DNA of 64,000 nt from assembly GCA_000165345.1 (NCBI GenBank), contig CM000429.1:256001-320000 (forward strand), in the 5' to 3' direction. The notes below the pieces were generated by a model, which was given only the letters and a program-made list of their open reading frames with translations, was not told the DNA's origin and made no database searches. Positions 2,800 through 63,923 of the stretch are shown here, one piece after another. The translations under genes and the position numbers were made by a program. Positions within the stretch are counted from its first letter, which is position 1; the number at the start of each line of letters is the position of its first letter.

Positions 2800-3847
2800 A
2801 TGGAATACAAAAACAAAAAGTTTGTAGTATTTCCAGATACAAATACTGGCTTGGAAAGAAACTTAACTATAATTACTTTACCTCATCCTAGTGTTAGCAC
2901 ACTCTGCGAATATTTGTTTGACACAGTTAATAATGAGGTATATGAAATTTTTGAATTGTCAGAGAGATCTAGTGGGATAAAGCCATCTGCATTTTTTGGA
3001 AATGATTGTATTTCAAAATTAGAACTTTGTGGAGCAGTAAATGTCGACACTTTTTTCTTTTTAATTTCAGCTTTAGTTTTTGCCAGAAATAAAAAGTATG
3101 TAAATAAAGAACTTTCTCAAGTTGTTATATATTATATTAGTAATCTAAAGCTAGAATTGGAACAGAGTGATTTTGACTTATTTGATGAGGTTAAGGATGG
3201 CATTTTAGAACTGTTTCAGAAATTTCTTTTAGATACCAAATTAATTGAAAAGATTGAAAAAGTTTGTGATATTTCATTAGGTAAGTTATAATTTTAATAA
3301 TATTCTTCTTTTACTCATTTTTTTTATGTGTTTAGAAGGAAAAAATTCAACAAATAGTGAAAACCAACCTAAAAAATTCACTCTAAACGATGAAAAACTT
3401 TTAAATTATCTCTCTGAAAGAGTTATTAAAACTGCAAAAATTTCTACTGAAAGAGGTCTTATACTTAATGATTATTATAGCGAACAAGGAACAAATTCTC
3501 CACATACATCACTTTCCCAAGTTCCCGCCCAGGAAATTGCATGCGATATGTTATTTGCATGTATTCCAAAATCTCTGACAAATGTCGGAGAGAGACTAAA
3601 GAGAAGATTTGGAGAGTATAAGACAACAAATGACTCAGGAAACACTGATAAAAATAATGCTTCTTTAAATAAAAACCCAAAGAATCAATATATTGGAGTT
3701 AAAAGAGGTATTAATAAGAGAGCTCCTCCTATTATTACAAAGTCTACACCATCCAAAAGAGCGCCACCACACAAATCATTAAAACTAAATGTAAATAATG
3801 ACGTGTCAAATGGTAATATATTAGAATTCTTAAAAAAAAAAAAATAG
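2800..3847 (+). CDS. RNase H2 non-catalytic subunit B-like protein; two exons 2800..3280 + 3336..3847 (330 aa)
   Basis: Track ORFs 2800..3291 and 3326..3847 are joined by a 55-nt intron (GTAAGTTATA...TGTGTTTAG, 3281..3335). The splice restores the frame exactly (g|aa = GAA). The N-terminus aligns with RNASEH2B, and the C-terminus carries a PIP-box-like tail. The relevant stretches are FVVFPD...LTIITLPHPSVSTLCEYLF...VNVDTFFFLISAL...ELSQVV and NGNILEFLKKK. Confidence 0.5.
3281..3335 (+). other. spliceosomal intron (55 nt) in RNase H2B-like gene
   Basis: GTAAGTTATA...TTTTTTTATGTGTTTAG. It joins two track ORFs in frame. Confidence 0.65.
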
Positions 3848-3906
3848 AATAAATATTTGAATTAAAATAAAATATTATATTAACTTATGAATTAAAAATA
3901 AAACTG

Positions 3907-5670
3907 TTATAAATGCTGATTGTCAAACATTTCTATTAAATTTGGTAAAGGCTTCTCGAGTTCTTTCTCTAAATAATCAATAATGTTTTCTCTGACTCCT
4001 ACTACAGTAATGGGTGTCGTAATTTCGCAAATTCGACTGTAACATTTTGCAATATTTGTCAAGCCTAAGCTTTCATCTAATCCTTTTTCGGGATTAGTTA
4101 CTACTTCAATATTTGATACTGGTATACTCTTTACGTGCCTATTTTTCAATCTTATATATCTTCCCCATTTATTTTTTTCAAAAATTTGAGAGTCATTTTC
4201 ATTCTGTTTATTATTTGGTTCCAAATTTACTTTAGCTTGATACTTTTTACTTTCATTCCTGAGATCTTCTTCCCATTTATATGGCGGTATATATTTTTTT
4301 TTTGGCTTTTCTTGGACTTTCTCAATATTATTACTAATATTTGGTTCTTTTTTATTTTGTTTTAGTTTCTGTCTAATTTCTCTATCATAGATTGGTCCTT
4401 GTTCACGATTCTCCCAGTCGTATTTGATTCGGCTTTTGGAATTGTTTTTCAACGTACTTGTGCTTTTTGTTGAATCCTTCATTTCATCATCAATTAATTC
4501 AGCACTATCAAATTTATCTGTAATTGGAATCAAATTTGAATAGACCTTACTAGAATCAAAATTAAAAACTATATTCATTGAATCGTTCCATACTTCTTTA
4601 AATATTCTGTTAATTACCTTTGTTCTCTCCTTTTGTATTCTTTCATTATCCAAATTGTTCTCAGCCTCCTCTCTACCAAAAAATACCATTTCTGATTTAT
4701 TTGTACTCTCAATTTCTTTTACTTCCTCTTTACTTTCCTTCTTTATTTTTGAATAATATTCCTTAGGTACTCCCTTTTTTATAAATTTCTCAATATTTGG
4801 TTGAAATGTACATTCTTGGAGAGATTTAAAATATGATTCCACCTTTTCATCCTTGTCATTATTATCCAATAATAAATACTTCTTTATCATTTGCATACAC
4901 TCATCATTCTTTGTAATGGAGTTAATTCCCAACTCATTTCTATACTTTTCAAAAAGTGTCTTACGTAAATTTGGTTGAAAAGTACACTCTGGATCAATTT
5001 CTGTTTTATATATTCCATCTCCTCCATTGTTACTTCTTTCGTTAATCAATTGCCTCCTTTTAAGGTATTCATTAATAGCTTTCTCCATTTGGGGTCCTAC
5101 TTGACTTTTTGTTAATTTTATTAATTTATTTCTTTCCTTATTTTTTTTATCCAAATTATCATTCTTGTCTTCTCCTTTACAATCTTTTGGAATTCCTTTC
5201 TTATCAAATCTTATTGGTATTGGAAACTTTTTACCATTTGGTAGTTTTAAATAAGATTGCATACTTTCAAGAAATGAATCTCTTGTCACAAATAAATGCA
5301 TTTCCTCATCAAAGTCTACCATAATAGGAGTAGTATTATACTTCATCTTAACTAAGTACTCTGTCTTTTCAATATTATCTGGAATTTCATCATCTTCCAA
5401 CTTATATGAATGTTTTATTACATATGGAACAAAATACTGAATTGCCAATATTTGATGTTTTGTCATCTTTTTTTGATTCTCTATTGATGTTGGTTGAAAA
5501 TTCATTAAATCATATACTTCAGATCCATTTGCAATTAAATCATACAATTCTAAAATTGATCTCTTTCTTAGATTCTCTGCAATTTGTCTGCTATTTTCAT
5601 TAATCTCCGGTTGGAAACTGGGAGTGGATTTTTGTTCCATCTCATCATCTTTCAAATTATTATCTTCCAT
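3907..5670 (-). CDS. hypothetical protein (587 aa) with a duplicated internal E-C-T-F-Q-P-N motif
   Basis: Long ORF with a true ATG at 5670..5668. It is K/E-rich. The two motif copies, IDPECTFQPNLRKTLFEKY and LQECTFQPNIEKFIKKGVPKEY, lie about 60 aa apart. No confident family assignment. Confidence 0.7.
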   Translation of the reverse strand: MEDNNLKDDEMEQKSTPSFQPEINENSRQIAENLRKRSILELYDLIANGSEVYDLMNFQPTSIENQKKMTKHQILAIQYFVPYVIKHSYKLEDDEIPDNIEKTEYLVKMKYNTTPIMVDFDEEMHLFVTRDSFLESMQSYLKLPNGKKFPIPIRFDKKGIPKDCKGEDKNDNLDKKNKERNKLIKLTKSQVGPQMEKAINEYLKRRQLINERSNNGGDGIYKTEIDPECTFQPNLRKTLFEKYRNELGINSITKNDECMQMIKKYLLLDNNDKDEKVESYFKSLQECTFQPNIEKFIKKGVPKEYYSKIKKESKEEVKEIESTNKSEMVFFGREEAENNLDNERIQKERTKVINRIFKEVWNDSMNIVFNFDSSKVYSNLIPITDKFDSAELIDDEMKDSTKSTSTLKNNSKSRIKYDWENREQGPIYDREIRQKLKQNKKEPNISNNIEKVQEKPKKKYIPPYKWEEDLRNESKKYQAKVNLEPNNKQNENDSQIFEKNKWGRYIRLKNRHVKSIPVSNIEVVTNPEKGLDESLGLTNIAKCYSRICEITTPITVVGVRENIIDYLEKELEKPLPNLIEMFDNQHL

Positions 5671-5779
5671 TTTGCTTAATTTATCTGGCTCTACTCCTCG
5701 CCTTCTTTCTACAGAACTTATATTTTAATATTCTTATTCTTACTAAAATAGCTATTTCTATTATACATACAGCTGAATT

Positions 5780-5797
5780 TGCATGCAAATTGGCGGT
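5780..5797. promoter_or_regulatory. composite TGCATGCA + E2F-like AATTGGCGG element, 110 nt upstream of minus-strand ATG 5670
   Basis: TGCATGCAAATTGGCGG. Confidence 0.45.
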
Positions 5798-6332
5798 CTT
5801 TTTTTTTTTTTTTAAATTTATTATTAGAGAATTGAAGTATTTAATATTGTGGATTTAATTCCATTTTTTTGATTAAAATACAAGCAAAATTATTTAAAGA
5901 TGAGAATAATGAAAATAGCCTACTAATTCATTTTTATTCTCTTTTATTATTGTTACTTTCAAAGTTTTATTTAAATTTACCACATATTCATCATTTTCCC
6001 TATTCCATTTTCACACTCTTTAGACATGTAACATAACACGTGCCCACACATGTCTATATATGATTAATTAAATTTTTCGATACCATCAATTTTACATTTT
6101 CGAAGTATTTTCTGCCTTAAATATACATATATTTTAATGGAATATTATCTTAATATAATTATTTATTAAAATAATTATCTCTATTAGCATACCTTCTTAC
6201 TTAAAAAAAAAATTTCTTAATAAACCAAAAATCATAATTATTCTTTTCATTTCTGTCTTTTTTTATTTAATTATTTTATAAGGATTTTTAATAAAATAAT
6301 TAAATATTTTTTTCCACATTAATTCATAATGT

Positions 6333-6393
6333 TGCATGCATTTAAAAATGCATGCAACTCCCCACACTTGACTATTGATTATTTTGGCGGGCA
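6333..6393. promoter_or_regulatory. two TGCATGCA palindromes (6333-6340, 6349-6356) followed by E2F-type TTTGGCGGGCA (6384-6393)
   Basis: GTTGCATGCATTTAAAAATGCATGCAACTC...ATTTTGGCGGGCACGCG lies inside a 1.4-kb ORF-free interval. Confidence 0.45.
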
Positions 6394-7067
6394 CGCGATA
6401 TAATAGGCAATAATAACAAATAAATAACAGAAAGAAAAAAAAACATCTAAGCTATGATTGAGAATTAGTTACTAGCCCTAAATTTTCTCTATAATAGATC
6501 TATTTATACCATTTAATGTAATTATTAAATAAAATTATTACTTGCAGGCTTCTCTTGCATTTATATAGATTCTAGTCTATTTTCCATTAGTAGTGACTCA
6601 TTAAATCTGTATCTTATTCATTACATTTATACTATTTTAAGAAGTACAAATCCACAACAAATTCAGATTAGAACCAAAAAAAAATATAGGAAATATATGG
6701 GACCTCCTTTCTTCAGAATGGCCATATTAAAATGTGCCATCCAGAATAACATGCTGAACCCCAAACTTGAGATTAAAAAAAACACACACACAAAACTTAA
6801 ACAAAAAGTTATTATACAAAACAATACAATACATTAATACAAATAAAAACTAATTTATTTAGTGGGGGAGGTTGCATAAATAACAATAATATAGTATAAA
6901 TTTAAAACCATAATATATATTTAATATTTATTTACTTAAATGGGCGGGAACTCTAATTAATTTACATGATGGATATTCCTCTTATTTCAATGAAAATTGT
7001 TTAAGAATACGAATAATTAAATGAACTTTCTCTTTTAATATATGGGACTGAGAAATAATTAAAGAAG

Positions 7068-7505
7068 ATGACATTTTCAATTATTCCTTTTCCAAAAATA
7101 ATAAGCTTTATGCTCCAGTACCTTTATCCATTAGTAGGAACTGCAAATGTAACGTTTGATTTTGGTAAAAAAGATATCCCAGTTTTTGAGCTGACTAATC
7201 TCTTATTCTATTGGATTATTTGTGGGGTAATCTTTATGATTGAGAGCATTGTTGGAATAGTTACTAAAATACCATTCTATTACGATTTGAAAATTATGGT
7301 ACTCCTGTGGCTCATCCTTCCTGTGTTCTCTGGATCTGGGTATATCTATTATATGTATATCCATGAATTGATTAACAATGGCTTAGAAAGTCACTTTTCT
7401 AAAGTTTCCCATAAATTAAAAGCTTTTAAATCTAGTTTGTTGGAATTCTCCAATAGTCCTAAGGCTAGAAAGTCTTACAAAAATAGAAAATACTTCAAAA
7501 GATGA
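7068..7505 (+). CDS. HVA22/TB2/DP1 family protein (REEP/Yop1-like ER-shaping reticulon-like protein)
   Basis: 145 aa with two hydrophobic hairpins and the family core FYWIICGVIFMIESIVGIVTKIPFYYDLKIMVLLWLILP...GSGYIY. Confidence 0.8.
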   Translation: MTFSIIPFPKIISFMLQYLYPLVGTANVTFDFGKKDIPVFELTNLLFYWIICGVIFMIESIVGIVTKIPFYYDLKIMVLLWLILPVFSGSGYIYYMYIHELINNGLESHFSKVSHKLKAFKSSLLEFSNSPKARKSYKNRKYFKR

Positions 7506-7518
7506 TACATCGGAAATC

Positions 7519-10500
7519 TTAAAGGCTTCTGTTAATTATAGATGAGGATACCCACCTGAGTTTAAGTTTTAGAGATGGGTCATTAAAATTTAGTACAAAT
7601 TCTAACGATAAGTTTTTAAAGTCTTTCAACAGTTGAGTTATATACTCTTCTTGAGTTGATTCAAGTTCTGATCTAGGAGTAACTTCTGTTCCAGTTAGAA
7701 CTGATCCAAATCTCAGAAAAATCTCAACTGTTGAATCCTCCATAAACTTTTGAATCTTTTCGTCCACTTGTCTATAGCTACATGTCTTTGAGCCAGTTTT
7801 GAATATATAAATTAAAGCTAAAACACACTTTTTCAAACCATTATTGCTTAATTCACCTGATTGATGTTCCCTATCATTCATCTCTGATTCTTTTGAATCT
7901 TCTGGTACTGGATCTTCAGAGACTGACTCTCGAGCCTTCATTCCCTCAAGAATCTCAAGAATAAGCTCAAATAAATCTAAAAATATCTGGTACCTACTCA
8001 TATTTAAAGAAATATCCAAACATACTGGAGACTGGATACAAGTTAAAATACATGCCAAGCTAATAGATGCTAGACCAGGATTTATTATTCCTTCTCCTAT
8101 GGCAACTGTTATCAAATTCTTAAGCTTTTGAAAGTTGAATCCCAAACAAATACCAGAATTCTCGTCTAAAAGTCCTCCCCAAATTGTCAAAATAATAGAC
8201 AAAAGTCTAATTTCCGTCTTGATATTGGGATTATTAATTATGTTGAAGTTTTTTTCAATAGATGAACTATCATCATCATTGGAAATGAGCTGTTCAACCG
8301 AGCTCCTAAACAAGTCATAATTTAATATACCATTTGATATTTGGCTGACTTGGTCTGAAAAGTAGTGTTGACCAAAATCTATGGTTGTAATATTGAAATC
8401 ACTTTCACTTGATTCTGTAAGATTATTCTTCTCGTCTTCATACCATTCCAAAATGGATGTTTTATAATTAGCGAAAAGACGCCTAATATGGCTCGGACTC
8501 TTGCTTCCCTGATCTACAATGGATATGAATAACAGGTCAAATAAGCTATCTTTTGTCCAAGTAAACTGGTCTTGTGGATGAGTGCTATTCATTCGTCTTT
8601 TTTTTGAACTTTTAAATGTATCTTTAAGAGAACTTTTATCTTGATCTTCATGATTATGGCTGATATCTTCGTCTTTTGACTCTTCTTTGTGGAATTGTCT
8701 TTCCTCATACCGTTTCGATACCTGCAGATCTTCATCAAGATCATCTTTATTTTCCTCCTGATCATTTAGTTTACCAAGCTTAGATTTAAGAAAATGCTTG
8801 ATTTGGCTATTCTTTTCCGTAATTTCATCCTTTGTAGTGAATTTAAAGACCAAAATCTCCTTTAGATAGTTGAGTTCTTTAAGCTTGAGGAAATTTGTGG
8901 GCAAGATAACTTTGGATGATTCTTTTCTTAGAAATGGGAACTTGTTAATTCTGAGACTTAAATTTTCATTTGGAATAGATAAAAGCATTTGAGGGAGCAT
9001 TATCCTAGACATTCCTGTTAGTATAGAATCCAAAAGACCGTTTAGAAACTGATCATGGATTTCAGTCTTGAATAGAAACTCGGTTTTATTGTTATTCCAG
9101 AAGGATTCTTTCAAAAAAGCACTTTGAAAAATGTCATTACTGGACAAAACACATATAATGTGTTTCTTAAGCCTAAATAACATTCCCATAGAAAAAGTTC
9201 TAATATGGGGGAATATCAGATGGTTAATCATCTCTCCAATCATAGGATTATTGGAATCTTCAATTGTACAATTTTGTTTTTGGGATTCATTTCCTGGTTC
9301 AAGTTCAGAATCAACCATTTCTCGAGATCTTGGAGAGTTCTCATTAATTAAATCCTTACAAGGCTGCATATTAAGTATAAATATGGGGGTCCAAATGGTA
9401 ACAAAAAATGAGCTTTGAAGCTTAACCAAGTTAATTACAAGACTATTAATAAAACTGATATGACATACATAGAAAGGATTAAGTAAATAGTTCCAAATTG
9501 TAATGGATAAACATAAATCATAAGAAGAAGAAGTGACCGGTAACTTTAATAATTGTCTTGCCGTCTCATAAGGTGATTGTACAAAGATTTCGTTAATACT
9601 GTCCATAGTTCTAAGGAGTATAAATTCTCCGATCTCTAATGTGTTGATTGAAGGAAATCTGACTAATTGCTTTGATAAATATTCATTGATTTCTCCAAGT
9701 TCTAGATTACTTAAAGCTTCTTCAAAGTTAAAGTCTTTTGGAGGGGAAAGGATTTCAGAAAGATAGTCAGAAATAGAGGATGATCTATAGAATCTTAATA
9801 TGGTCATAATTCTTGGAGATTGTTGTTCTCTCCAGCGAAGAAAACTATTCCAGTATTTGATGAAAGGATTCTCAAGAGATTGAATTTCTTTTAAATCTTT
9901 TCCAACAAGATTTAACAATACCTTTTGTGTCTCATTACAATATTCAACTATATATGTATCGTAGAACAATGTAACATCTTTAAGAATCTCATGATAAAGA
10001 GCTTGATTCTGGTTTTCTGATTCTGAATTCCTCATTTCTTCTCTAATTAAAGGTAAAGCATATGCAATTAAAGTAAATAGTATGAAAGAATGATGATCGG
10101 AAACAAGATACTTTTGGGAAGAATTAGATCTTGATTTTTTCAGAGACAAAGATGTATTGAGAATAACTCTATATATAGAGACAAGCTGGCTCAAGTCAAT
10201 TATGTAGAAATTGGCCATTTCAGTGAAGAAATTTAAAATGAGTTGACAAGAGTAGTAGTTTGACTTACTGAGGTCAGAAGTAAACCTCTTAATTGAGAGC
10301 TCAAGAATCCTAGTAGTTAAGTTTGAGTGAGTTGATAATGGAGAGTCATTAGTTAAAGATGTTGAGAATAGAGCAGTAACTCCTGCAAAAATACCAGTTT
10401 TAAAAGGCTGTGTAGCAATAAACTCCACAAGAATACGAGTAATAGACTCATATACTAAGTCTGCCTCAACTTGAGACAACCCCTGAAATAAGCTGAGAAA

Positions 10501-10686: not shown

Positions 10687-10738
10687 CTTTGTGAACACGA
10701 TTTTATTTTAACTTCCAATTCAGATGCCATTTGAAACA

Positions 10739-12198: not shown

Positions 12199-12243
<45 letters not shown>

Positions 12244-12288: not shown

Positions 12289-12372
12289 CATATTAACATG
12301 TAAGTTTAATTAGAATAAACGCGAGTTAATATTGGGGATATTTACAAAGGTGAAACGAAATTTATTAAAAAA

Positions 12373-13314
12373 ATGCAACAGGGAAATTACTGGGACTTTT
12401 GTAAGGACACAGAGTAAGTTTCTATTTGTAGAAATTCATGTTGTGAGTTGAAGTTCATTATCTACTTATAGGGGTAAATTTTTTATTGAAAGTGGTAAAA
12501 ACCATTTGCTCTCTGCAGTATCTACAATACACGATTATGAGAGTCCCCAAACTGCTATAATTTGTCATGGTTTATTTTCAAGTAAAGAAAATCGTCTCTG
12601 TCAGACTATTGCAAAACATCTCAGTATTAATGTTGTTCGTTTTGATTTTCATGGTAATGGAGAGTCTCAAGGAGCAGACTCTTGGAGCTTTGGGGATTAT
12701 CATGGGGAAGTTAATGATGACCTAAGAAAAGTGGTTGAATTTTTAAGAAATAAAGGTCTTGAAATAAAGGCTATTATTGGCCATTCTAGAGGTGGAGTTG
12801 AGACTTTAATGTATTCATGGATGTATGATGATGTTGACATTATTATTAGTATCTCAGCTAGATTTGACTTAGCTAATTCAATTATAACTAGATTTATATC
12901 GGATGAACAGTATGAAAAATTAAAGAATAATGAGCTTGAATCTGTTGAAATTATTCCAAGAGATAATATTCCAAGAAAGATTACTCTTGAATGTATAAAT
13001 AAAAGAAATTTGGTGGATTATAATATGCTTAAAACAGTAAAGAACACAAAGTATTTCCTACTAATACATGGCACAAAAGATGATATTGTCCCAGTACAAG
13101 TAAGTTCTATTTAAGACTTAACTTAAACTAAGTAATTTGACATTATTTTTAGGATTCTAGTGAAATTGCAAGATTTATTCCTCCACAAATTCCTCATGAA
13201 ATTGTTTTAATTGAAGATGGTTCTCACTCACTCACAGAGAATAGTGAAATTAGATCCCTAGTGAATCATCATATAAATCGAGTTATTAGTTCTCTATTAA
13301 ATAAAAAGACTTAG
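12373..13314 (+). CDS. alpha/beta-hydrolase-fold serine hydrolase; three exons 12373..12413 + 12472..13099 + 13153..13314 (276 aa)
   Basis: Track ORF 12506..13114 starts at TTG and has no in-frame ATG. Upstream, ATG 12373 plus a GTAAGTTTC...CTTATAG intron (12414..12471) joins in frame. A second GTAAGTTCT...TTTTTAG intron (13100..13152) joins a 3' exon encoding DSSEIARFIPPQIPHEIVLIEDGSHSLTEN... The nucleophile elbow is IGHSRGG, the Asp lies in HGTKDDIVP, and the His lies in DGSHS. Confidence 0.65.
12414..12471 (+). other. spliceosomal intron 1 (58 nt) of alpha/beta hydrolase gene
   Basis: GTAAGTTTCT...TCTACTTATAG. It provides the otherwise missing ATG exon (MQQGNYWDFCKDTE|GKFFIESGKNHLL...). 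Confidence 0.55.
13100..13152 (+). other. spliceosomal intron 2 (53 nt) of alpha/beta hydrolase gene
   Basis: GTAAGTTCTATTT...CATTATTTTTAG. The downstream exon encodes the catalytic-His region DGSHS in frame. Confidence 0.65.
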
Positions 13315-42495: not shown

Positions 42496-43106
42496 TTTAT
42501 TCTATAGTTCCTCTTCACTCCAACCTTTTTAATCTAATTAACTTTTAATTTGGATGCATGCCACGTCTGTGTCTCCACATGTAAAGGGGGGTTATAAATA
42601 GTGAAAAAAGAATATTAGGTGGTTAAAAGTTATTAGTGATGAGAGAATATTTTTTATTTGGTTAATTTTCAGCGTTATTGGGTTATAATAGGTGAATGTT
42701 GAGATATAAAGAATGATTTGAGTAGAATGGAGAATAGGTCTATGGATTTTGATTAGACTGAATTAAGCTTTTTAGATTCATTTTTTTATAAGGCAAAGAA
42801 TAAAATAAAAATGTAGTATTTGGCGGGAGACTGATTGAGTAGGTATTTAAAGTAGAAATAATGGTTAGAAAACTACAATTACAAAGAATAAGAATAGTGA
42901 AAATATCCAAATGCAAATTTTCAAGCAAACAAACGAGGTAATACACGTTAAATATTTATATGTAGTGGATTTCTCGTAGTAAGTTTGATACTTTTTATTG
43001 GGTAAAATGGCAAAATGGCGTGATTACTTATATCGTAGGGGATCAGATAAGTAAAAAGCGCGGATTATAATTTCATCTTGAGAAATCTAAAAGCATACCA
43101 CTAGAT

Positions 43107-45024: not shown

Positions 45025-48000
45025 ATGTCAAGAACCAAAAAGAGCTGGAAGAGGAATAATTCTGGCTTCCAGCTTTACATTAAACTTATTCCTGCTATTC
45101 TTCTTTGGATATTTTTTCTTTCTGGGAAAGTTTTATCATCTAATACTTATGAAAATCTTCAAAGCTCAAGAACAGGCAACTACTCTCCTCTCAGATACGA
45201 AGAAGCCTCAAGTAATTTTCAGGAAGGTAATAAACAACATCATTCTTTTATAAAAACTGGGAATTTAACTCCAGATGGACCATTATCCACTAGGAAATCT
45301 AGTTTAAATTCAGCACCTGATGAATCTCAGAAAAAAGACCCACTTTTAACCCAGCAAAATCCCTCCAGTGCATTCCTTCCTGAGATATTTATGTCCCAAT
45401 TGGACATGGAGTATGGGAATAGAAATCAGGGATCAGGGAGAATCACAGATAAAAATTCTGATGAGAGATCAGAAAGCAGCTTAAACTTACAAATATCGTC
45501 CTTGTCAACTTCTCCAGCAACAACTCTAGAATCTGATTTACAAAAATTATCTTCGGAACCAAATTCTTTAATGAATACTTCACTGAGTTTTTCTCCTCCG
45601 CCTGCTCCGCCACCACCTCCGCCTCTTCCAGGCCAATCCCCGACGAATAGTCCAAGTTTTCAGATGCTTGATCCTTTGTTTGAGCCTATAAATAAGAAGA
45701 AACAAGATGAATTCATTAAAGATTTAACAAAAATTAAATTAGTCTCAGATGTCCTACCAGTTCCTTTTAAGAAAAGCGAGCAGAAGTACGAATTTGGTTA
45801 TAGCCGCAATAGAAACCAGAGCCTAAACAATTATAAAATAAAGAATCTTGCAATAACTAGAGAAGAATTTAAGGAAAACCAGAAGAAACTGGAAGAGAAA
45901 GACCCTGAGCAGCAAGGTAAAGCTATTGATACTCCAGAGAGAGCTGAAGAAGACAAGATTGAGATGCTTCCATTACCTCTTGGGCCTCCAATTCCTGGTA
46001 CTGAGCCTGGAATAGAGGGTTTATCTCATATTATACCTTTAGATAAAGTACCAATTAGGCCTCAAAAGCGACAGGATGAGTGGGAATGCATTACCTCGCA
46101 GGTTGAAAGAGACAAAACCACATGGAAGATTGAAAAAGGTAAAATGAGGTTTAACTATATCCCAAAATTCAGTGAAATCAGCCAATCAATTTTTCCTTTA
46201 AGCGGAGATCCTAAAAGTTTGTATTATAACTGTATCTCAGCACTGAAGGCTTTGGAAGCTAAGTTAATTATTACTCCACCTTCCAGTGATGAGATTGAGG
46301 CAGAGTTTCTCAGAACTACCTTTTGCATTTCTGCTGCAGTATTTTGTTACGTAGAAACTGCCATGGGAGATCCAGAACTTCAGCTCTTTTGGAATCGTGA
46401 AGTTAGAACGATTACTGATGCCCTTGTTGCCAGGGATCCGAATTTGGATCTCCTTCAGGTTGTAGGTGAGAGTTTGGCTACAAAGATTGATACTCATGTT
46501 GGATCAACAGGAATTTCCTCCCCAGATCGTTTGCCAGATTTTATGCCTCAGAGAATGCCTAACCAAAGTTTTTCCTTTGCCTCCACAAAGTTGGAAACTT
46601 GCCCTACCAGGAATCAAAGAACCGATCAGGGAGACTATGAATATGAGGGAGGGCTTGCTGTAGCTTTGTCAACTAATATTAATGGTGTAATTGTTGATGA
46701 TCCTGAAATTTGGACAATGTGGAAAGCTATCATTACACAAAAGGATAGGGATTTAAATATGAATTTGAAGAGATTTAAGATTTTTTCAAAGGATTTTCCA
46801 GTAAAGTTTAGCTCAGATACAAAGCCAAAGAAGATGAGGGAGATGCGGAATTTATGCGTGGAACTAATAAGGGAGGGAATTAAAGAAAATCCTCCAAGAT
46901 ACGAACTTTTACCTTTGGCAAAACCAAATGAGGAGCAAGTTTTGAATGAGTTTTGTAACTATGCAGCAGACTACTACTTTGGAAATAGACAATGGAGTTA
47001 CATTTATGACTTTTCCTTAAATTCAAAATATATTAATGGGGTACCGGTTTACAGACCATATGCACCTTTTAGATATTTTGCAGCTGAAACATTTAATGAG
47101 ATGAGGAACAATTGTTGTTCAGTAATTTACGACCTCTTCTTAAGCAAAGTATTTCCTCACCTTTCTACAAATCACTATAGAGACAAAGGTGCTTCAATGG
47201 ATAAGTCAAAATTGGAACGATTCTGCCATGAAGCAGCTGGAAAGTACTTTAAGAAGGATACCTCAGAGTTTGACTCAAGGCTAAAGAATGTAGGATACTT
47301 TGATTTTGCAAGCTATAAATCAAGGGTAACCAATTACAAGAAAGCAAATTACCAATCTTTAGTATTAGAAGGTATGCATGACTTGGAGGATACTCCAGGA
47401 CACTTTTCAATAGGAAGTATTGATGGGAATCTAAGCTACACTCCAAGATTTCCAAACTTGAAGCCAACAAGAGTCTGTTTTTCACAGTGGAAGGCAATTC
47501 TAGACCAAAATAAGGAGGATCTTAAAAACAATATAGAAACTCCAACTCACTTGCCTGATGTAATTCCTAGTGAATGGAATATGCCTCAGTTTTCTCGAGC
47601 AACCTTTAAGATAACTTGCTTTAGAATATTACGTAAGTTATACAGAGAAGGAAGTGTTTCATTAAGATCTAGTGTTTTGAGACCAAGCAGTGTTGAGCAA
47701 AACATGGAGAAGATTTTCTCAGACTTTTGTACTGAGGCTTCCAAGAGATACTTTGATGGGCTAAACACAGATTATTCAATGGAAAGTCTTCTACAAGTTC
47801 AAGCTGATACAGAATCTCAGTGGAATTCGGTAGTAGAAGCTATAATGAGGCTTCAAGAGAGTAAGAAGAGCACAACAATCTATTGGGTTTACCCTATTCC
47901 TCCAGAAAGTTATGCTCTGAGTTTATTTAGATATAACGTGAACCCTTCTTCAGAAGATGAGGAAGAGGAGGAGAAGATTAAAAAGAGCTTTTGGAAATCA

Positions 48001-52440: not shown

Positions 52441-53427
52441 TTATACTGTGTCATTGCATGTGATCACAAGAAACATCCGAGTGGATTGGATCGGAAGTCC
52501 CTTGGTCTGATTTATTATGGATATAGTACCATCGCATCTGGCCAAAATAATACTTGATAATGAGTTATTAATAGTTCTGGGAAATGCTTCTGCTACAGCA
52601 ATTTCTTGTCCATATTTAACCCTTCTATTTCTAGAAATTGTTTTGGAAAAGTGAATAACAACAGGTTCTGCTGCAAAATATGCAGCAAAAATAGAAGTCT
52701 TAATTTCAAGTGGTACGTAGGTTTCGGGGCGCATTTTGTTTCCATTATAATTAGAGTTCATTACATCCTCATTTGATGTCATATCCTGTATGAACAGCTT
52801 CCTTGTGGCTTGAGGATTTCCAAATGTAGAGTTGGATTTGTTACCAGGATCTGAACCAAAAAATAGATATTCACAACTATCAATTTGATTCTGATTTGTA
52901 TTAGTTTGCTTTTCTTTTGAATCTTCCTTTTTCTTCTTTTGCCTTCTGATATACTTTGACCACCAGTACTTCATTCTACTACCACTTTTCTCCTTCTGGC
53001 TTTCATTGGATTCCTTTTCTGGTCTCAAATTATTTTTATTCTTTTCAGATTTGTTGTCAGATTTACTCTCCGACTTGTTTTCTGACTTCTTTTCTGACTT
53101 CTTTTCTGACTTCTTTTCTGACTTCTTATCAGACTTTTCAGAAGTCTCCAGGTTTTCAGAAGATTTAACCCCAGTCATTTTAGAATCCCTCTTGTTAACA
53201 TAATGATAAACTCCAAATCTAATAGCATTACTGGTTAAGCTTGAGACAGAATTGATGAGAAAATCCTTATTATCAAATGGATCCACTGGCTCAGACTCAT
53301 CAGAAGCCATATGTAACCTATAATACTCATCATCTGATGCCTCCAAATTTCCTTAATTTTTGAAATAGAAGAAAATTAATTCTTTCCTATAACTTTGATT
53401 TGATTGAGCAACTTACCTTTCCCCCAT
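52441..53427 (-). CDS. hypothetical protein with internal (S-E/D-K-K)n repeat; tentative 2-exon model 53427..53417 + 53317..52441 (295 aa), or unspliced 53310..52441
   Basis: Track ORF starts at TTG 53346. The in-frame ATG is at 53310 (MASDESEPVDPF...). Upstream on the minus strand, ATGGGGGAAAG is followed directly by GTAAGTTGC (53416..53411). The only acceptor keeping the frame is TATTATAG (53325..53318), giving MGER|LHMASDE.... The C-terminal ~130 aa look like a folded domain (YFAAEPVVIHFSKTISRNRRVKYGQEIAVAEAF...ILARCDGTISIINQ). Confidence 0.55.
53048..53143 (-). repeat. degenerate 12-nt tandem repeat (about 8 copies, core GACTTCTTTTCT) inside a CDS, encoding (SEKK/SENK/SESK/SDNK)n
   Basis: ...TCTGACTTCTTTTCTGACTTCTTTTCTGACTTCTTTTCTGACTTCTTATCAGAC... 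Confidence 0.9.
53318..53416 (-). other. tentative spliceosomal intron (99 nt) in KSE-repeat gene
   Basis: On the minus strand GTAAGTTGC...GAGTATTATAG. It is the only frame-preserving acceptor. The polypyrimidine tract is weak, so it is tentative. Confidence 0.35.
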
Positions 53428-53814
53428 AATGTTTTAACTCCAAAATGTATTGGAATTCGAAGACCAGAACAATAGAGTTCTTCGCAGATCCAATCAGAAA
53501 GAGCAGGCCAAGATCTTTGAATCTGCCTTAATGAGCTTTCCTCTGTATCAGTACTTTGACGAAAACACTTTGTGGAATCATGGAATCAGTTACTTCTATA
53601 AGGTGGTTGCATGCATGTAGAACTTACCTCAATTTGAAAAACAAGTAATTGAATAAGTAAAAGAGCAAAGTACATTTTTTCTTAAGAAGTTTTAAAATCA
53701 ACCAACTTTAAATCGAACTCATGGTGAGAATCCTAAAAAAAATGAACATTGGCCCAGTCCTTCTTTGGCTGAAAAAGCATTTCGAGACTAAAAAAATAGT
53801 CAACCAAAAACGAA

Positions 53815-57070: not shown

Positions 57071-57871
57071 ATGGGTTCTTCCAAAATCAGGACGGCAGCA
57101 GCAGTAGCAGGAGGTGTGGCAGTGGTTGGTGCCCTTTTGTACTATTTATTCCGAAGTGACTCTTCAGAAAATAAGGACGAGTCCAATACTTTAGTTGAAG
57201 CCTCGGCAACCAAAGATGTACCGGAGAACACGGTAAAGGGGTCGCTGGATACTTTTACTAAAGAAGACATGTTATTATTGCTTGATGAGATCCTAGAGAG
57301 TCAAAACTCTCTAAAGAAAATAATGCGCTCCCTAACTAATGACTTTGTTGCCGACCCCCCAAAGTCTCTCCAGGATTGCTATAATAAGGTTAAAGATGCG
57401 TCTCCCCAGGATCCATTAGATAAGAGGAAAATTTCTCTAGTTGACTTTGATCGCTTGGTAGAACGCTTTTATAATGACGAGGGTATAAGTAGCGCAATAG
57501 AAAAGATCATGGGAATCCATGGACCAAGTTCTATAACAGAGCGAGCGGGCAGTATTAGTAGTGATCAGCTTGTCAAGGTTAATGAGTTTATGTTGAAAGA
57601 ACTGAGAGAGTTCGTGGACCAATACATTTTTATAGCTAATAAAGATCAATTTGATGTTAAGACACTAACTATTGCCGCACAGGTTTGGGTAGGCTCTAAA
57701 GTTGAGAAGCAGTTTAACTTGAGTTCTGATGATATTGAAACCGCAATGCTGCTTCATTCCCAGACTCTTCGTAATGATCCAGATTTTGGACGAATTAGTT
57801 TCCAGATGCAGGCTACTATGGAACAGTTGCTTGGTTCTCCTGCGCCAACCAATCTTCCCTTTTCAATATAA
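57071..57871 (+). CDS. hypothetical N-terminally membrane-anchored protein (266 aa)
   Basis: MGSSKIRTAAAVAGGVAVVGALLYYLFRSD is a single N-terminal hydrophobic anchor followed by a soluble domain. No family recognised. Confidence 0.6.
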   Translation: MGSSKIRTAAAVAGGVAVVGALLYYLFRSDSSENKDESNTLVEASATKDVPENTVKGSLDTFTKEDMLLLLDEILESQNSLKKIMRSLTNDFVADPPKSLQDCYNKVKDASPQDPLDKRKISLVDFDRLVERFYNDEGISSAIEKIMGIHGPSSITERAGSISSDQLVKVNEFMLKELREFVDQYIFIANKDQFDVKTLTIAAQVWVGSKVEKQFNLSSDDIETAMLLHSQTLRNDPDFGRISFQMQATMEQLLGSPAPTNLPFSI

Positions 57872-58389
57872 TTTTATTATATATTAGAAATCCAGTTTCC
57901 AAGATTGTCGCATTGCTCGGGAATGTAATTGATTACCATTATATTTCCTCGATATATCTCTTTCATTTCGTTTACCAGCCTGGTATTTATTATCTAAAGT
58001 TTGATTTGTTCGATTTGGATGTAATTATATTATTCGGAAGAGACCAAATTTCTTATTTTTAAAGGAAAAATCAAATTGATCCTCCAATATCCTATAAATA
58101 TTTATTAGTCATAACTAGGTTTATATTTTATTTTGGTAGAGCATTCACTTGGACGCTGAGTTCACTAAGCCCAATTGGATCGTATACTTATAAAGTTAGA
58201 AAATTCTAATTGTGTCATTTTATCTTACTTTCCTTTCAATTTTGATAAATTATACTTCATTGTAGAAAGAGTCGTGGAAACTTAACATAGACTTATTAAC
58301 AAACAGGGTAATCATCTTTTTATTTGTGAAAAAATAGCGCGCAAATAATTTCAATTATTTATGACACGTCAATTGTTTGATTAAAAAAA

Positions 58390-61300
58390 TTATTTGCATG
58401 CAGATAAATTTTTATTGTGGCATGCAATTGTATGCAAAATCAATTCAAAGAAATCGCGAGAGAATTTTTCTCCATCGCAAAGTTTGGATTCAGTGAGTAT
58501 TCTACGAAGATTTGAGCGATAATAAATTAGTCTTTCAGTATCATTTGCAAGGCTTAAAGCGGCTTTAATAAATTCTTTCTTATTACTTGCAATGAGTTCA
58601 TTCAAGTTTAAATTAGTGAGAATGGACCTTCCAACATTTTGAGAATGAAATGACGAAATTTCAGTATAAATGTCTGAAGAATCTATTTGGGAATTTTCTG
58701 ATTGGTCAATACTTAAAGTAATTAATGGAACTCCCATAAAAATACATTCAAATGTCGTGGTTGTTCCAGCATATGGGAAAGTATCTAAAGAAATGTCAAT
58801 ATCATTATAAAGCTCCAGATGAGAGTAATAAGAGTTGCTTAAGGGGATTAAAGAAATTCTATGTGGTTGAATATTGTATTTTGATTTGAAAATTTCAAGA
58901 TAAAAATTGCAACAAGACTGTGAGCTGAATGCTTTGGATTTAAGCAACAAATGGCTTTCAGGAACACTTTTTAGGACTTCACCCCAAAGTTCTATTGTTA
59001 AGGGATGTAATTTAGTAACTCTGTTGAAAGATCCAAAAGTTATAAATCCATTTTTTTTCATAGGAGGTTCGGAAATTGGTGGATGTTGAATTTTTGGTAA
59101 AGTATAACAAAGAAAGCAATTTGGGAGATAAAGTAATTTTTCAGAGTATTTTTGTTTTGTATGAAGAGGATCAACTATCTTATCAGTAATACGATAATCA
59201 ATGTACTTTAATCCAGTAGTGTTTGGATACCCAATCCAAGAGATTTGTATTGGAGAGTTTTTTAAAGCAAATAAAGCCAAGCAATTATTGACTGTATGAC
59301 CACTTAAGTCAAAGAGAATATGGATATTATCACTCCGGATAAGCTTTGAAGAAAATTCAATATCTTTCCCATGTATATATCTCCAATTTTCACTAGGAAT
59401 AAGATCCTTGAAAAAACATGAATAATAGTCATGGTGAGGGGAATTGTCATATATGAAGATATTCAGTTTGACTTGTGAATTGCCTTCTATATTACAATCT
59501 CTAGTTGAGTTCTTTGAGAAATTCTTAATTAAAAATTTTATGGGAGCTAAAATGAAGAATGCAACTGCATGATGGAAGTATTCTGCACCAACAAACCCTA
59601 TATTAATCAATTGTTTGTCTGAAGTTGACTCAATATCTGGAATTTCAGCAATAGGAATTAAATCATCAAGACGGTTCTTGATTTCTCTATGAATCTCGAT
59701 GAATTTATCCCCCCATTCCAAAGATAGGTCATACATATCTTGGTAATTTATATAATAATCGGAGTTATTTATCCAGATTTGAGACTCGCATACATAAGAT
59801 TCTGGAGTAGAGCTGATATCTAAGCAAAGACTCTTTTCAGAATCCTTTAAGTTATTAATAATTGACTCAATTGAATTGTTTCTAATATTACCAATTAACT
59901 TTGGGTTATCTAATGGAATAAAGTAATTCAAAATATACAATAGGTTCTGAAACGCCAAAGTATGGTTAGGATCTAGCTCAAGAGCTACTAGAAAACAGTT
60001 TTTTGCCATCAAAAAGTTCCCACAGTCTCTATAAAGCACTCCAAGATTATTATATACATCGGGAACGCCTTGATTAACTTCGATACACCTTTTAAAATAC
60101 TCGTATGACTCGTCAATCTTACCAATATTACCGTATAAAGCTGCAATAACATTCAATGTAGTAATACAATTTTGATTAATTCTGGAAATCCTTTCATAAC
60201 ATAAAATTGCTTGATCAATAAATCCAAGCTTTCTAAGAATTATCCCAAAGTTATCATAGGCATTAACATTCATAGGATTAAAGTGGATTGAAAGTTTGAA
60301 GCACCAAATGGCCTTTTCTTCCTTACCTAATTCATAATATATTATTCCCAAGTCAGTGTATGCTTCTGAAGATTGTGGAATATATAATATCACTTTTTTC
60401 AAAATGGACTTAACTAGGCTAAATCCAGCATTTTTTTTTCTGGCTTCAACTGCTTTATTATAAAGTAATTTACCAAAATAAGATCTGAAATCATCATTAA
60501 ATGGATTTTTCTTGATTAATCTCTCCATAATACCAATGCTCTTATCAATATTGCCATCGATCTCGAAACAAAGTCTGGATAATGAATACCCAATTTCACA
60601 ATTAATACAGTTTTTGTTTGATTCAAAGCATTCCTGTAGCAAATTCTTGCATCTAGAATAAACTTCAAGATTTTTAGAATCATTTATTCTAATATTCGCT
60701 AAAGGTGGTTGACTAAGTTCTATTCCATTCAAAGATAATATTATCCTAACCATACAATGAATAATATTTGGATAAAATAAAAAACAACTCAAGAAATATT
60801 GATGTGAATTATTTTCCAGAAATTCCAGTTTATTTGATTTGAATAGTATTAAAATTGTCTCCTTGAGACAATTTACTAGTCTATCAATATCCTGATACTT
60901 ATTTGCAATATAATTTAATGCAAGACAAGCATCATCATAATTTTTAAGAGAAATTTGAATAATTCCAAATGACAAAACTTGCATAATTAGTTCATGAATT
61001 CTATCAGTATTCTTTATTGAGTTTTCATTATCGTTAATTGATTCGATATTTGTCATTTTGTAACGAATACAATTCTGGATCAGATCAATTATTAAAGAAA
61101 TAACTCTATCAAAATTTACCAATTTAATATTAAAAATTTGAAGCAGAATCTTGGAGAAAATCATTCCTATAAAGTAAGCCAAGTCCTCCATATCAGACTC
61201 TTCAAACTTTTGTATGTCCGAAAGTTTACTTAAGCATTTATTGCAAGAGTAACTCCTTAAATTAATACATATTTGTTGAAATGACTCAATATTATTTAAA

Positions 61301-61488
61301 AGTTCAATTAAAATTGTGCCCACAATACTAATATGATCATTATTCAATAAATGTTCATCAGCTCCATTCACTACCCATTCTTTGAAATTAATGTTACCAT
61401 CAAATTCGGAATTATTACAAAAGCAAAAAATAGTCATTTCTTGGCAAGTTTCTGGGATTTTATTCGTAACTCCACCATCTTTCAGCAT
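58390..61488 (-). CDS. SPINDLY/OGT-family (GT41) glycosyltransferase with N-terminal TPR repeats (1032 aa); in apicomplexans this family acts as a nucleocytoplasmic O-fucosyltransferase
   Basis: TPR block: AYTDLGIIYYELGKEEKAIWCFKLSIHFNPMNVNAYDNFGIILRKLGFIDQAILCYERIS...VYNNLGVLYRDCGNFLMAKNCFLVALELDPNHTLAFQNL. GT41 catalytic region: IGFVGAEYFHHAVAFFI...HILFDLSGHTVNNCLALFALKNSPIQISWIGYPNTTGLKYIDYRITDKIVDPLHTKQKYSEKLLYLPNCF. Confidence 0.8.
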   Translation of the reverse strand: MLKDGGVTNKIPETCQEMTIFCFCNNSEFDGNINFKEWVVNGADEHLLNNDHISIVGTILIELLNNIESFQQICINLRSYSCNKCLSKLSDIQKFEESDMEDLAYFIGMIFSKILLQIFNIKLVNFDRVISLIIDLIQNCIRYKMTNIESINDNENSIKNTDRIHELIMQVLSFGIIQISLKNYDDACLALNYIANKYQDIDRLVNCLKETILILFKSNKLEFLENNSHQYFLSCFLFYPNIIHCMVRIILSLNGIELSQPPLANIRINDSKNLEVYSRCKNLLQECFESNKNCINCEIGYSLSRLCFEIDGNIDKSIGIMERLIKKNPFNDDFRSYFGKLLYNKAVEARKKNAGFSLVKSILKKVILYIPQSSEAYTDLGIIYYELGKEEKAIWCFKLSIHFNPMNVNAYDNFGIILRKLGFIDQAILCYERISRINQNCITTLNVIAALYGNIGKIDESYEYFKRCIEVNQGVPDVYNNLGVLYRDCGNFLMAKNCFLVALELDPNHTLAFQNLLYILNYFIPLDNPKLIGNIRNNSIESIINNLKDSEKSLCLDISSTPESYVCESQIWINNSDYYINYQDMYDLSLEWGDKFIEIHREIKNRLDDLIPIAEIPDIESTSDKQLINIGFVGAEYFHHAVAFFILAPIKFLIKNFSKNSTRDCNIEGNSQVKLNIFIYDNSPHHDYYSCFFKDLIPSENWRYIHGKDIEFSSKLIRSDNIHILFDLSGHTVNNCLALFALKNSPIQISWIGYPNTTGLKYIDYRITDKIVDPLHTKQKYSEKLLYLPNCFLCYTLPKIQHPPISEPPMKKNGFITFGSFNRVTKLHPLTIELWGEVLKSVPESHLLLKSKAFSSQSCCNFYLEIFKSKYNIQPHRISLIPLSNSYYSHLELYNDIDISLDTFPYAGTTTTFECIFMGVPLITLSIDQSENSQIDSSDIYTEISSFHSQNVGRSILTNLNLNELIASNKKEFIKAALSLANDTERLIYYRSNLRRILTESKLCDGEKFSRDFFELILHTIACHNKNLSACK

Positions 61489-61958
61489 AATGAAGTCCTA
61501 ATACCGTATTTTTTCCACTAACATTATACAATTTAAGCTTTCAGATTACTTTAATTAAAAAAAAAAAAAAAAGTAGTTATTATGTCATTTAGTATGTTAT
61601 GAAAAAACCGCATAAACTTCTGGACTAGACCTTAAAAGCTATAAATCTAGAAATTGATTTCAAAGGTATAAAGTCAATATTGAGTTTGTGTCCTAAAAAC
61701 CCTGGAAATATATTAATGATTACTATTTTTCAATTTTTTATCCAACTCGAATCTATTTTCAACATCATTCAAAAAGCTTTTGCAAATATGAACGCGTATA
61801 AAAGACACTAGTAAAAAATAATAATAAATGGATACCAATAGATATTTTTGAACTAGTAAAAAAGTAATATCACACAAGGAACAGTCTAACTTTAATTATA
61901 TCTAATAATTACTTTGACTTGAAGGCAAATATAAAAAAATTAAATATAGAATAATTCA

Positions 61959-61968
61959 TTGGCGCCAA
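61959..61968. promoter_or_regulatory. E2F-like TTGGCGCCAA upstream of CstF-64 ATG 62107
   Basis: Exact palindrome. Confidence 0.45.
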
Positions 61969-62106
61969 AACGAGAATTGTTTTTTTTAATTTATAATACA
62001 ATTAGAGGCGAAGTGAAAAACAGAAAAAAATCCTAAAATATTATTTATAAATAAATATATATATTAACTTATAGAAGGACTTAAACAAGTGGGATAGTTT
62101 TCTGTG

Positions 62107-63095
62107 ATGCATTCTTCAGGAGGAAGTCAGGTCTGGGGTAAGTTTTAAAAGAGTTAAACTTGACAAAAGTGATCATTTAAAATAACTTATCTTTAGTTGG
62201 AAATGTACCATTTGACGCTACAGAAGACGAACTAAGGGAGGTTATGAATTCAGCTGGTCCTGTTCTGTCAATGAGAATTGTGCATGATAAGGACACTGGA
62301 TTGAGTCGTGGGTTCTCTTTTTGCGAATATCGTGATATAGAGACTTGTATTATGGCAATAAAGAGTTTAAATGGATACGAATTAAGAGGGAGATCTATTA
62401 GGGTTGACTGGGCAAGCCAGGATATGAGAAGTAGATATAATCATTTAGTTGTAAATAATACATCTGGTACAGCTCCTGTAACAGCAACAACTCAAGGTGG
62501 GATTGGAATGGGACAACAAGGAACTGAAGGCTTACATCATCCAATATCTTTAACAGCGCCATCTCACGTTCAACAAATTCAGGAGGATGGGACATCTATG
62601 CCTTCAATCCCAAATAACAATGCAAATTTTGATAATATTTCGTCAGAAATTATCCAACTTGTACAAGGAATGACAGTTTCTCAGTTATATTATTTGATAG
62701 GCCATATGCAAAAACTTGTTGTCCAGAATCCTGAAACTGCAAGAAGCATTTTACTTGATAATCCTCAATTTTGTTATGCTCTTCTTCACTCTCAATTCAT
62801 TTTAGGTATGGTTAATGAACCATTTGTTCCACTTAATCAAGAGCAACTTAACAAAGCGAATGAAATCAGAACTAAAGTATTGACTTTAAGAAACGAAAAT
62901 TCTAATATTAATATTAAAAATTTGGGAGAAGATGTTTCTGTTCTTATTGAGGAAATTGCAAACAACCCAAACCCTGCATTACTTCAAGCATTGGCTTCAA
63001 TCCAGCCAAATTCCGTTGCCCAGTGGACTGAAGAAGAAAAATCTAAGATCCTTGCAATCCAACAAGCACTAAAAAATAGGGGGCTAATTAACTAA
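62107..63095 (+). CDS. cleavage stimulation factor subunit 2 (CstF-64) homologue; two exons 62107..62137 + 62197..63095 (309 aa)
   Basis: Track ORF 62244..63095 starts inside an RRM (RNP1 SRGFSFCEY but no RNP2). Upstream ATG 62107 plus the GTAAGTTTT...TCTTTAG intron (62138..62196) supplies MHSSGGSQVWVGNVPFDATEDELREVM (RNP2 VWVGNVPF), matching CSTF2 SVFVGNIPYEATEEQLKDIF. The hinge domain MTVSQLYYLIGHMQKLVVQNPETARSILLDNPQFCYALLHSQ matches CSTF2 MFELMKQMKLCVQNSPQEARNMLLQNPQLAYALLQAQ. The conserved C-terminal EEEKSKILAIQQALK is present. Confidence 0.8.
62138..62196 (+). other. spliceosomal intron (59 nt) in CstF-64 gene
   Basis: GTAAGTTTTAAAAG...AACTTATCTTTAG. It restores the RNP2 half of the RRM. 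Confidence 0.75.
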
Positions 63096-63252
63096 AGAGC
63101 TCGTTCATATACTACTAAATCATTGTTATAGAAATTAGTATGCTTAATTTATTATATTATATGTTTCTTTCATTATTTTTTAATATTCTTTTATTTGTGT
63201 GTTTTTATGTGCAAATTTCCAAGGTAAAAAAAATAATAAATTTGTACTTTTT

Positions 63253-63262
63253 ATGGCGCCAA
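63253..63262. promoter_or_regulatory. E2F-like ATGGCGCCAA 22 nt upstream of CHMP1 ATG 63284
   Basis: Exact match. Confidence 0.45.
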
Positions 63263-63283
63263 AAATTAAATTTTTACTTCAAA

Positions 63284-63923
63284 ATGGGAAATAGGATTTC
63301 TATTGATGATTCAATATTTGAACTCAAGCTACAGAAAAAGGAGCTAGAGAGACAATACAATAAGAGAGATAGAGATTCAAAGAGCGAAAGGAAGAAAGCT
63401 AAGGATGCTATAATTTCCGGCAAGGCAGACCTCTCTAAGTAAGTTTAAAATAACTACAATTTTTAACCATTGCCTCTTGTTTATAACGTCTCCAAATTAT
63501 TATTCTGATAGGATTTATGCAGAGAACTCACTAAGAATGCAGGAAGAATGTAAAGAACTTCTTATCATGATCTCCAAACTAGATCGACTCTGCGCCAGAC
63601 TAGAAAAAGCATCATCAAAGGAAAAAATTTCAACACAGCTTTTAGATATTATGCCAAAATTGAAAAAGCAACTTTCCGAAGAAGGAGTTATGGGATACTC
63701 AAATATGGGCAAGATCAAAGAAATCGGCCAGCTACTTAATACTATTGAAGATTCCCAGCCCGAAACAGTTGGGGAGAATGTGGGTAAAGAAAAATGCATG
63801 CATGCAGAAGACTCTGTTGAAAGACTGCTAGATGAGCTTTTAAATGAACATGCTATGGAAATTGATCTGGCAATATCCTCAAAAACTGAAATTAATGAGT
63901 TACTGGAAGAAAAGTTAGAGTAA
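63284..63923 (+). CDS. CHMP1: ESCRT-III subunit CHMP1/Did2 (Snf7 family); two exons 63284..63438 + 63512..63923 (188 aa)
   Basis: Track ORFs 63140..63442 and 63477..63923 (both TTG starts) are joined by a GTAAGTTTA...TCTGATAG intron (63439..63511), giving aa|g = AAG. The spliced product ELKLQKKELERQYNKRDRDSKSERKKAKDAIISGKADLSK|IYAENSLRMQEECKELLIMISKLDRLCARLEKA aligns with CHMP1B [72 protein letters not shown]. Confidence 0.8.
63439..63511 (+). other. spliceosomal intron (73 nt) in CHMP1 gene
   Basis: GTAAGTTTAAAATAAC...TTATTATTCTGATAG. It joins two track ORFs into a full-length Snf7-family protein. Confidence 0.75.

Follow-up and report, generated by a model that had tools for sequence, protein, structure and literature searches.

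Seven short GTAAGTT introns in five genes of a 64-kb stretch of Cryptosporidium parvum chromosome 1

The window analysed here is a stretch of 64,000 nucleotides (nt) of Cryptosporidium parvum chromosome 1 (assembly GCA_000165345.1, contig CM000429.1, positions 256,001 to 320,000 of the forward strand), and all positions are counted from its first letter. It is AT-rich, with 26–40% GC, the open reading frames (ORFs) are densely packed, and the last 11.9 kb are 99.99% identical to C. parvum chromosome 1 in CP029780.1 (one mismatch in 11,894 bases), a record in which the window lies at about 261.5–325.5 kb. The subject is a set of seven short introns in five of its genes, namely those for RNase H2 subunit B (RNase H2B), an alpha/beta hydrolase, a protein with KSE repeats, CstF-64 and a CHMP1-like protein.

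Introns and exons of five genes

Introns were counted by comparing the annotated span of each gene with the length of its product, for all 32 genes across the window. By this census five of the 32 genes carry introns, seven in total, and the intron sequence per gene (55, 111, 125, 59 and 73 nt) equals the sums of the introns in the following list, where aa stands for amino acids.

2800..3847, plus strand: RNase H2 subunit B gene, 330 aa when spliced; spliced product identical to QOY43525.1, CPATCC_000318
3281..3335, plus strand: RNase H2B intron, 55 nt, phase 1, GTAAGTTA...GTTTAG, 16% GC; frame restored, exact protein match
12373..13314, plus strand: alpha/beta hydrolase gene, 276 aa, three exons; spliced product identical to KAL5370348.1, OLQ18578.1, PPA63946.1
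12414..12471, plus strand: hydrolase intron 1, 58 nt, phase 2; follows a 41-nt first exon (MQQGNYWDFCKDT and 2 nt)
13100..13152, plus strand: hydrolase intron 2, 53 nt, phase 0; the last exon holds the histidine of GSH
52441..53675, minus strand: KSE-repeat protein gene, 369 aa, three exons; from annotated span and product length, unique GT-AG solution
53568..53627, minus strand: KSE intron 1, 60 nt, phase 0, GTAAGTTC...CACAAAG (AAG acceptor)
53352..53416, minus strand: KSE intron 2, 65 nt, phase 1, GTAAGTTG...AATTAAG (AAG acceptor)
62107..63095, plus strand: CstF-64 (cleavage stimulation factor subunit 2) gene, 309 aa; spliced product identical to QOY43496.1, WKS76031.1
62138..62196, plus strand: CstF-64 intron, 59 nt, phase 1; after a 31-nt first exon, splits RNP2 (VW|VGNV)
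63284..63923, plus strand: CHMP1/Did2-like ESCRT-III gene, 188 aa; spliced product identical to EAZ51329.1, QOY43495.1
63439..63511, plus strand: CHMP1 intron, 73 nt, phase 2; frame restored, exact protein match

The first seven nucleotides are GTAAGTT in all seven annotated introns, and all seven end with AG, which is YAG in five and AAG in the two introns of the KSE gene. The introns are 53–73 nt long with a GC content of 16–38%, about 40% of their bases are T, and the T at position +7 is common to all seven. Tiny first exons of 31, 41 and 48 nt hold the start codon, and five of the seven introns lie inside the first 67 codons; a bias of introns towards the 5' end is usual in intron-poor genomes.

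A preliminary description of the window had been made with the help of a prokaryote-style list of stop-to-stop ORFs, which is unable to show splicing, and it was right that this track misses the introns. GTAAGTT is present at each 5' end that it gave, including that of an intron it held to be tentative, and five of its introns (3281–3335, 12414–12471, 13100–13152, 62138–62196 and 63439–63511) are exact, end with YAG and yield spliced products equal to deposited proteins. Splicing is also required, as it had claimed, for the full-length RNase H2B-like protein, the hydrolase (two introns), CstF-64 and CHMP1, given the exact matches, a complete RRM and contiguous homology. Its count of six confident introns and a tentative one does not agree with its own list, which holds five and one, and the annotated total of seven equals its sum by coincidence. 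Its rule that all introns end with (T)YAG applies to five of them, but the KSE introns end with CAAAG and TTAAG.

The number of GTAAGTT heptamers is by itself weak evidence, being only marginally above chance: the window contains 14, against 8.8 ± 2.7 expected, and four of 100 shuffled sequences reached 14. It is the placement that carries the weight, with eight sense-strand copies inside gene spans and seven of these located exactly at base 1 of an annotated intron. If the interruptions were assembly frameshifts or lesions of pseudogenes, next to which GTAAGTT occurs by chance, the modest excess over the shuffled sequences would be in line with it, but the seven out of eight placements would not; moreover, each interruption starts with GT, ends with AG and restores the frame when removed, and the same interruptions, with GT...AG retained, recur in other species and independent assemblies. 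This explanation is scarcely conceivable.

GT...AG introns are found at the same positions in the C. meleagridis and C. ubiquitum orthologues of the window genes, and conservation of both position and phase is seen across C. meleagridis, C. ubiquitum, C. bovis and C. muris. Sequence change is faster in introns than in exons for four of the five genes that were compared, the exception being RNase H2B against C. meleagridis, and several orthologous introns differ by indels whose length is not divisible by three. The IOWA-ATCC annotation contains matches to four of the five spliced products, three under QOY accessions and the hydrolase as a gene call.

With a GTAAGT donor, an AG acceptor, a restored frame colinear with homologues, a length and GC content typical of the species, and a conserved position and phase, the seven elements are, as far as can be judged from sequence, almost certainly ordinary short U2-type GT-AG spliceosomal introns in five C. 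parvum chromosome 1 genes. The spliceosome would remove each AT-rich intron of 53–73 nt from the pre-mRNA and join exons that an ORF scan sees as separate or truncated frames, and the joined mRNAs should encode RNase H2 subunit B, the alpha/beta hydrolase, a Cryptosporidium-specific, secreted-looking KSE-repeat protein, CstF-64 and a CHMP1-like ESCRT-III protein. GTAAGT(T) would then be the near-invariant 5' splice site of an intron-poor genus, probably pairing with U1; GUAAGU is fully complementary to the conserved 5' end of the U1 small nuclear RNA. No common branch-point motif is visible by eye among the seven intron sequences. Rfam and tRNA scans of the window gave no matches and so no sign of intron-hosted small nucleolar RNAs, and a search for spliced transcript contigs among the Logan members of the protein clusters yielded unspliced genomic ORF calls only.

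The RNase H2B, hydrolase, CstF-64 and CHMP1 genes

The RNase H2B region is modelled as one 330-aa gene in IOWA-ATCC, and a single full-length protein is also annotated in C. hominis, C. tyzzeri, C. meleagridis, C. ubiquitum and C. canis. Iowa II (2004) has here two independent intronless genes of 163 and 173 aa, a model that CP029780.1 and CM109961.1 share and to which the ATG present in each ORF lends itself, and the gene appears unmerged in the tables of the 2015 re-annotation (Isaza et al. 2015, PMC4637869). The two ORFs are, however, merely 34 nt apart and are linked in frame by a canonical 55-nt GTAAGTT...TTTAG intron, and C. meleagridis has a 52-nt intron at the same position, GTAAGTTG...TTTAG.

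Homology likewise joins the two halves. Single-sequence Pfam matches are borderline, with Ydr279_N at 24.9 bits (cut-off 25.2) and wHTH at 18.9 bits, and the wHTH match covers residues 86–201 and thereby crosses the junction. Searches of the PDB with the single sequence and with an alignment of four sequences gave no match, and the AlphaFold2 model built from the four-sequence alignment has a predicted local distance difference test (pLDDT) score of 36 and is unusable. A profile of eight orthologues matches human and mouse RNase H2B in the PDB (3PUF_B, 3P56_B and 3KIO_B) with E=1e-7, and the residues from exon 2 form a second, weak match that is colinear on the same RNase H2B chain, so that both halves follow one human chain in the order of a triple-barrel N-domain and then a wHTH domain. 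The second ORF also encodes a C-terminal tail, ...NGNILEFLKKKK, that is conserved among the orthologues in the pattern ...SI(L/M)xF(L/F)KKK and reads KSIMSFFAKKA in the most distant homologue. We take this tail to resemble a PIP box, the PCNA-interacting motif; a PDB search with it, seeking a PIP-box peptide, found nothing. Two separate genes are thus very unlikely here, and the two-gene model is a correctable annotation error.

In the hydrolase gene the annotated span of 942 nt less the 831 nt of coding sequence leaves 111 nt, which is 58 and 53 nt. The spliced product matches the Pfam families Abhydrolase_1 (46.4 bits), Hydrolase_4 (44.8 bits) and Abhydrolase_6, the last with a coverage of 2–208/217 in the spliced form only. 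A putative Ser-Asp-His triad in GHSRG, KDD and GSH is aligned to solved hydrolases, with the His in the third exon, and at the second junction (DDIVPVQ|DSSEIA) the alignment to solved alpha/beta hydrolases is contiguous. The core WDFC of the peptide encoded by the micro-exon is kept in C. felis and C. muris. Compared to C. meleagridis, intron 1 is 84% identical against 96% for the exons, and intron 2 has an indel of 1 nt. A model with three introns yields exactly the hydrolase deposited for C. muris, and the first and third of these introns agree in position and phase with the two of C. parvum.

The additional C. muris intron (comparison locus L013, 1001–2201) is 85 nt long, follows codon 167, has the form GTAAGTCA...AATCAG and is absent in C. 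parvum, which indicates a loss in the intestinal lineage or a gain in the gastric lineage. Upstream of the gene there is a perfect (TAT)x14.7 microsatellite at 12199–12242, in the intergenic region that the hydrolase gene shares with a divergent RRM gene; most of it is missing in C. meleagridis, and it is a possible typing marker.

In CstF-64 the RRM_1 domain is complete after splicing (1–70/70, 68.8 bits), while the longest unspliced ORF that starts with ATG holds only 21–70/70 with 41.6 bits. The architecture is that of a CstF-64, with RRM_1 (68.8 bits), CSTF2_hinge (47.2 bits) and partial_CstF (61.2 bits) all over the Pfam cut-offs. It had been proposed that the first exon supplies the initiator Met and the RNP2 motif as well; the Met is indeed encoded there, but RNP2 is split (VW|VGNV) and exon 1 gives only its first two residues and one base. 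In C. ubiquitum the intron at this position is 62 nt long, GTAAGTTT...CCTAG, and the identity between the species is 71% for the intron against 86% for the exons.

The expectation that such 5' micro-exons are easily missed is borne out by the Iowa II models of 2004, since both the hydrolase and CstF-64 are there labelled 'partial' and read into the introns, as SSLSTYRGKFF...VQVSSI and NNLSLVGNV..., respectively.

The deposited proteins that match CHMP1 are labelled 'developmental protein' or Snf7 family protein, and the spliced product has no Pfam Snf7 match at E<=0.01. It does match both human CHMP1A and CHMP1B over residues 7–173 with E=1.1e-12, and the alignment runs ungapped through the junction (...ADLSK|IYAENSLR). 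In the C. ubiquitum gene the intron at this position is 70 nt long, GTAAGTTG...TCTCAG, with 61% identity for the intron against 85% for the exons.

The KSE-repeat gene

The annotated span and product length of the KSE gene leave 125 nt of intron in total. All one- and two-intron GT-AG models that fit the span 52441–53675 and 369 aa were enumerated, and exactly one is left, with introns at 53627–53568 (60 nt) and 53416–53352 (65 nt). The gene then starts with ATG 53675, and the first exon encodes a hydrophobic, signal-peptide-like sequence, MYFALLLIQLLVFQIE. A homologous model with a 60-nt intron 1 reproduces the deposited C. meleagridis protein exactly. Exon 2 (SWPALSDWICEELYCSGLRIP...WGKG) and the sequence LEASDDEYYRLH directly after the second junction (the LEASDDEYY region) are both kept among orthologues of seven Cryptosporidium species. 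In C. ubiquitum intron 1 is found at the same place as GTGAGTT...GAAAG, and the position and phase of intron 2 are retained in C. ubiquitum (with TTTAG) and C. bovis (with AATAG). The product matches no Pfam family.

The preliminary description had tentatively placed an intron at 53318–53416, of which the donor at 53416 is right and the acceptor is wrong; the true one is at 53352 and its choice lies 34 nt too far, because a YAG rule was applied and the real introns end with AAG. In that model a four-codon first exon (MGE and 2 nt) starts at ATG 53433, or else the protein begins with ATG 53310 and the gene has no coding intron. Both the GTAAGTT donor and a TATAG acceptor at 53318 do exist, the frame stays open, and there is an in-frame ATG at 53310. 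Neither product is found in the public protein collection, however, and the span with 369 aa is satisfied by the introns of 60 and 65 nt only. The longer interval would remove NLEASDDEYYR and ignore SWPALSDWICEELYCSGLRIP, both conserved in up to seven Cryptosporidium species, and the acceptor at 53318 shifts the frame relative to the conserved upstream frame. These alternatives are most improbable; acceptor, frame and start codon were mistaken in them, and the intron at 53627–53568 was missed.

A 12-nt tandem repeat at 53039–53136 of this minus-strand gene encodes the (KSEK)n tract. The repeat appears to be polymorphic, with a product of 369, 372 or 373 aa among C. parvum assemblies. The deposited C. 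bovis orthologue (comparison locus L011, 10001–11848) begins with MQKRIGLDKNF... and has a large first intron, inside which there is a signal-peptide-like exon, MVSILSLMLFFVLQE, followed by GTAATGA and resembling the first KSE exon of C. parvum; the 5' end of the C. bovis gene is probably mis-modelled.

Published annotations and other GTAAGTT sites

Excision from the mRNA would follow from a published statement on the IOWA-ATCC annotation, which gives RNA-seq support for 100% of its introns (Baptista et al. 2022, PMC8744675). Some points weigh against the interpretation of the seven elements as spliceosomal introns of single genes. An exact look-up of the 369-aa KSE product in the protein collection found no match, so that the KSE model stands on the annotated span and length, the argument of a unique solution and the orthologues, and both KSE introns have the less common AAG acceptor. 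For RNase H2B the intron and exons are both about 94% identical to C. meleagridis (94.2% and 94.5%, respectively) with one indel of 3 nt, a comparison that is uninformative on evolutionary rate, and the annotations that split this gene include CP029780.1 and CM109961.1, which are recent.

The introns and their consensus are already known and are carried by curated public annotations, with corrected models in the later ones, namely IOWA-ATCC, C. hominis 30976 and TU502_2012, C. tyzzeri and C. meleagridis. They are the same objects as the C. parvum introns annotated in IOWA-ATCC and in 2015; five of those in the preliminary description do not differ from them and the sixth differs in its acceptor. 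For C. parvum, 10.8% of genes with introns and an intron GC content of 22% have been reported (Isaza et al. 2015, PMC4637869), together with a median intron of 61 nt and no evident branch-point consensus (PMC2483917) and a mean intron length for the species of 82–99 nt (PMC4637869, PMC2483917). The intron lengths, the GC content and the fraction of five genes in 32 found in the window fit these genome statistics. The donor GTAAGT in all seven introns is in line with the 84% of Cryptosporidium introns that start in this way (Irimia and Roy 2008, PMC2483917), and to the eye they show no clear branch-point motif, in agreement with the same paper on C. parvum. What goes beyond that consensus is the T at the seventh position, of which no discussion was found in the literature on Cryptosporidium introns that was consulted. 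The base at +7 is also T in the seven introns checked among the C. meleagridis and C. ubiquitum orthologues, and A in C. bovis; with introns of about 40% T the T at +7 may in part be compositional. The window resembles yeast-like intron-poor genomes in the tiny first exons with a start codon and in the 5' bias of the introns, but Saccharomyces has a GTATGT donor and a TACTAAC-type branch site, whereas the window introns have GTAAGT and show no TACTAAC-type site.

The significance lies mainly in annotation hygiene, with RNase H2B split in Iowa II, CP029780.1 and CM109961.1, and the hydrolase and CstF-64 truncated in Iowa II. Gene structures with micro-exons can be recovered by a reading of the sequence alone in an intron-poor eukaryote, and genes with AAG acceptors are mis-modelled where YAG is taken as a strict rule for the acceptor.

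Among the other GTAAGTT heptamers, the one at 1258 was tried as the donor for a gene of 231 aa, with candidate introns 1258–1592 and 1258–1635, and was rejected; it is not conserved in C. meleagridis (CATAGGTT), and in the C. parvum annotation the gene is an uninterrupted ORF from ATG 1677. The heptamer at 47633 lies in frame inside an ORF of 2443 aa and was rejected as an intron start because the annotated length of that gene equals the uninterrupted ORF. Three more (40698, 41493 and 45490) are antisense to genes and that at 42979 is intergenic.

Another GTAAGTT is located at 12300, 73 nt upstream of the hydrolase ATG. The stretch around 12300–12349 is nearly unchanged in C. meleagridis (72 of 74 bases) and lies directly downstream of an E2F-like site, TTTGGCGGGAA; it could be a 5' untranslated region (UTR) intron of 50 nt (GTAAGTT...ACAAAG) or merely conserved promoter or UTR sequence. 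That the AAG acceptors are used in vivo and the T at +7 is a true extension of the consensus instead of AT-rich composition, or that 12300 marks an unannotated 5'-UTR intron, is unlikely; if true, it would be a small refinement of the splice signals in an intron-poor parasite and not a new kind of element.

In the C. meleagridis orthologue of window 1677–2372, which encodes the 231-aa protein (comparison locus L010, 8256–9583), an upstream exon of 16 codons and a 533-nt intron (GTAAGAAG...ATGAAG) are annotated; both are absent from the C. parvum annotation, and this model is probably an ab initio artefact. About 2.8 kb past the 3' end of the window there is a SNF2 helicase gene with an annotated 64-nt intron (comparison locus L001, 14730–14793) that has a non-consensus donor, GTTCACAG, and the annotations disagree, one assembly having 771 aa with the intron and another 807 aa without it.

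Palindromic TGGCGCCAAA motifs are located at 61960–61969, about 140 nt upstream of the CstF-64 start, and at 63254–63264, about 20–30 nt upstream of the CHMP1 start, and GCATGCA motifs are repeated in upstream regions, for example at 1187–1193 and 1214–1220. Both may correspond to the E2F-like and GCATGC motifs described for Cryptosporidium promoters, which they resemble.

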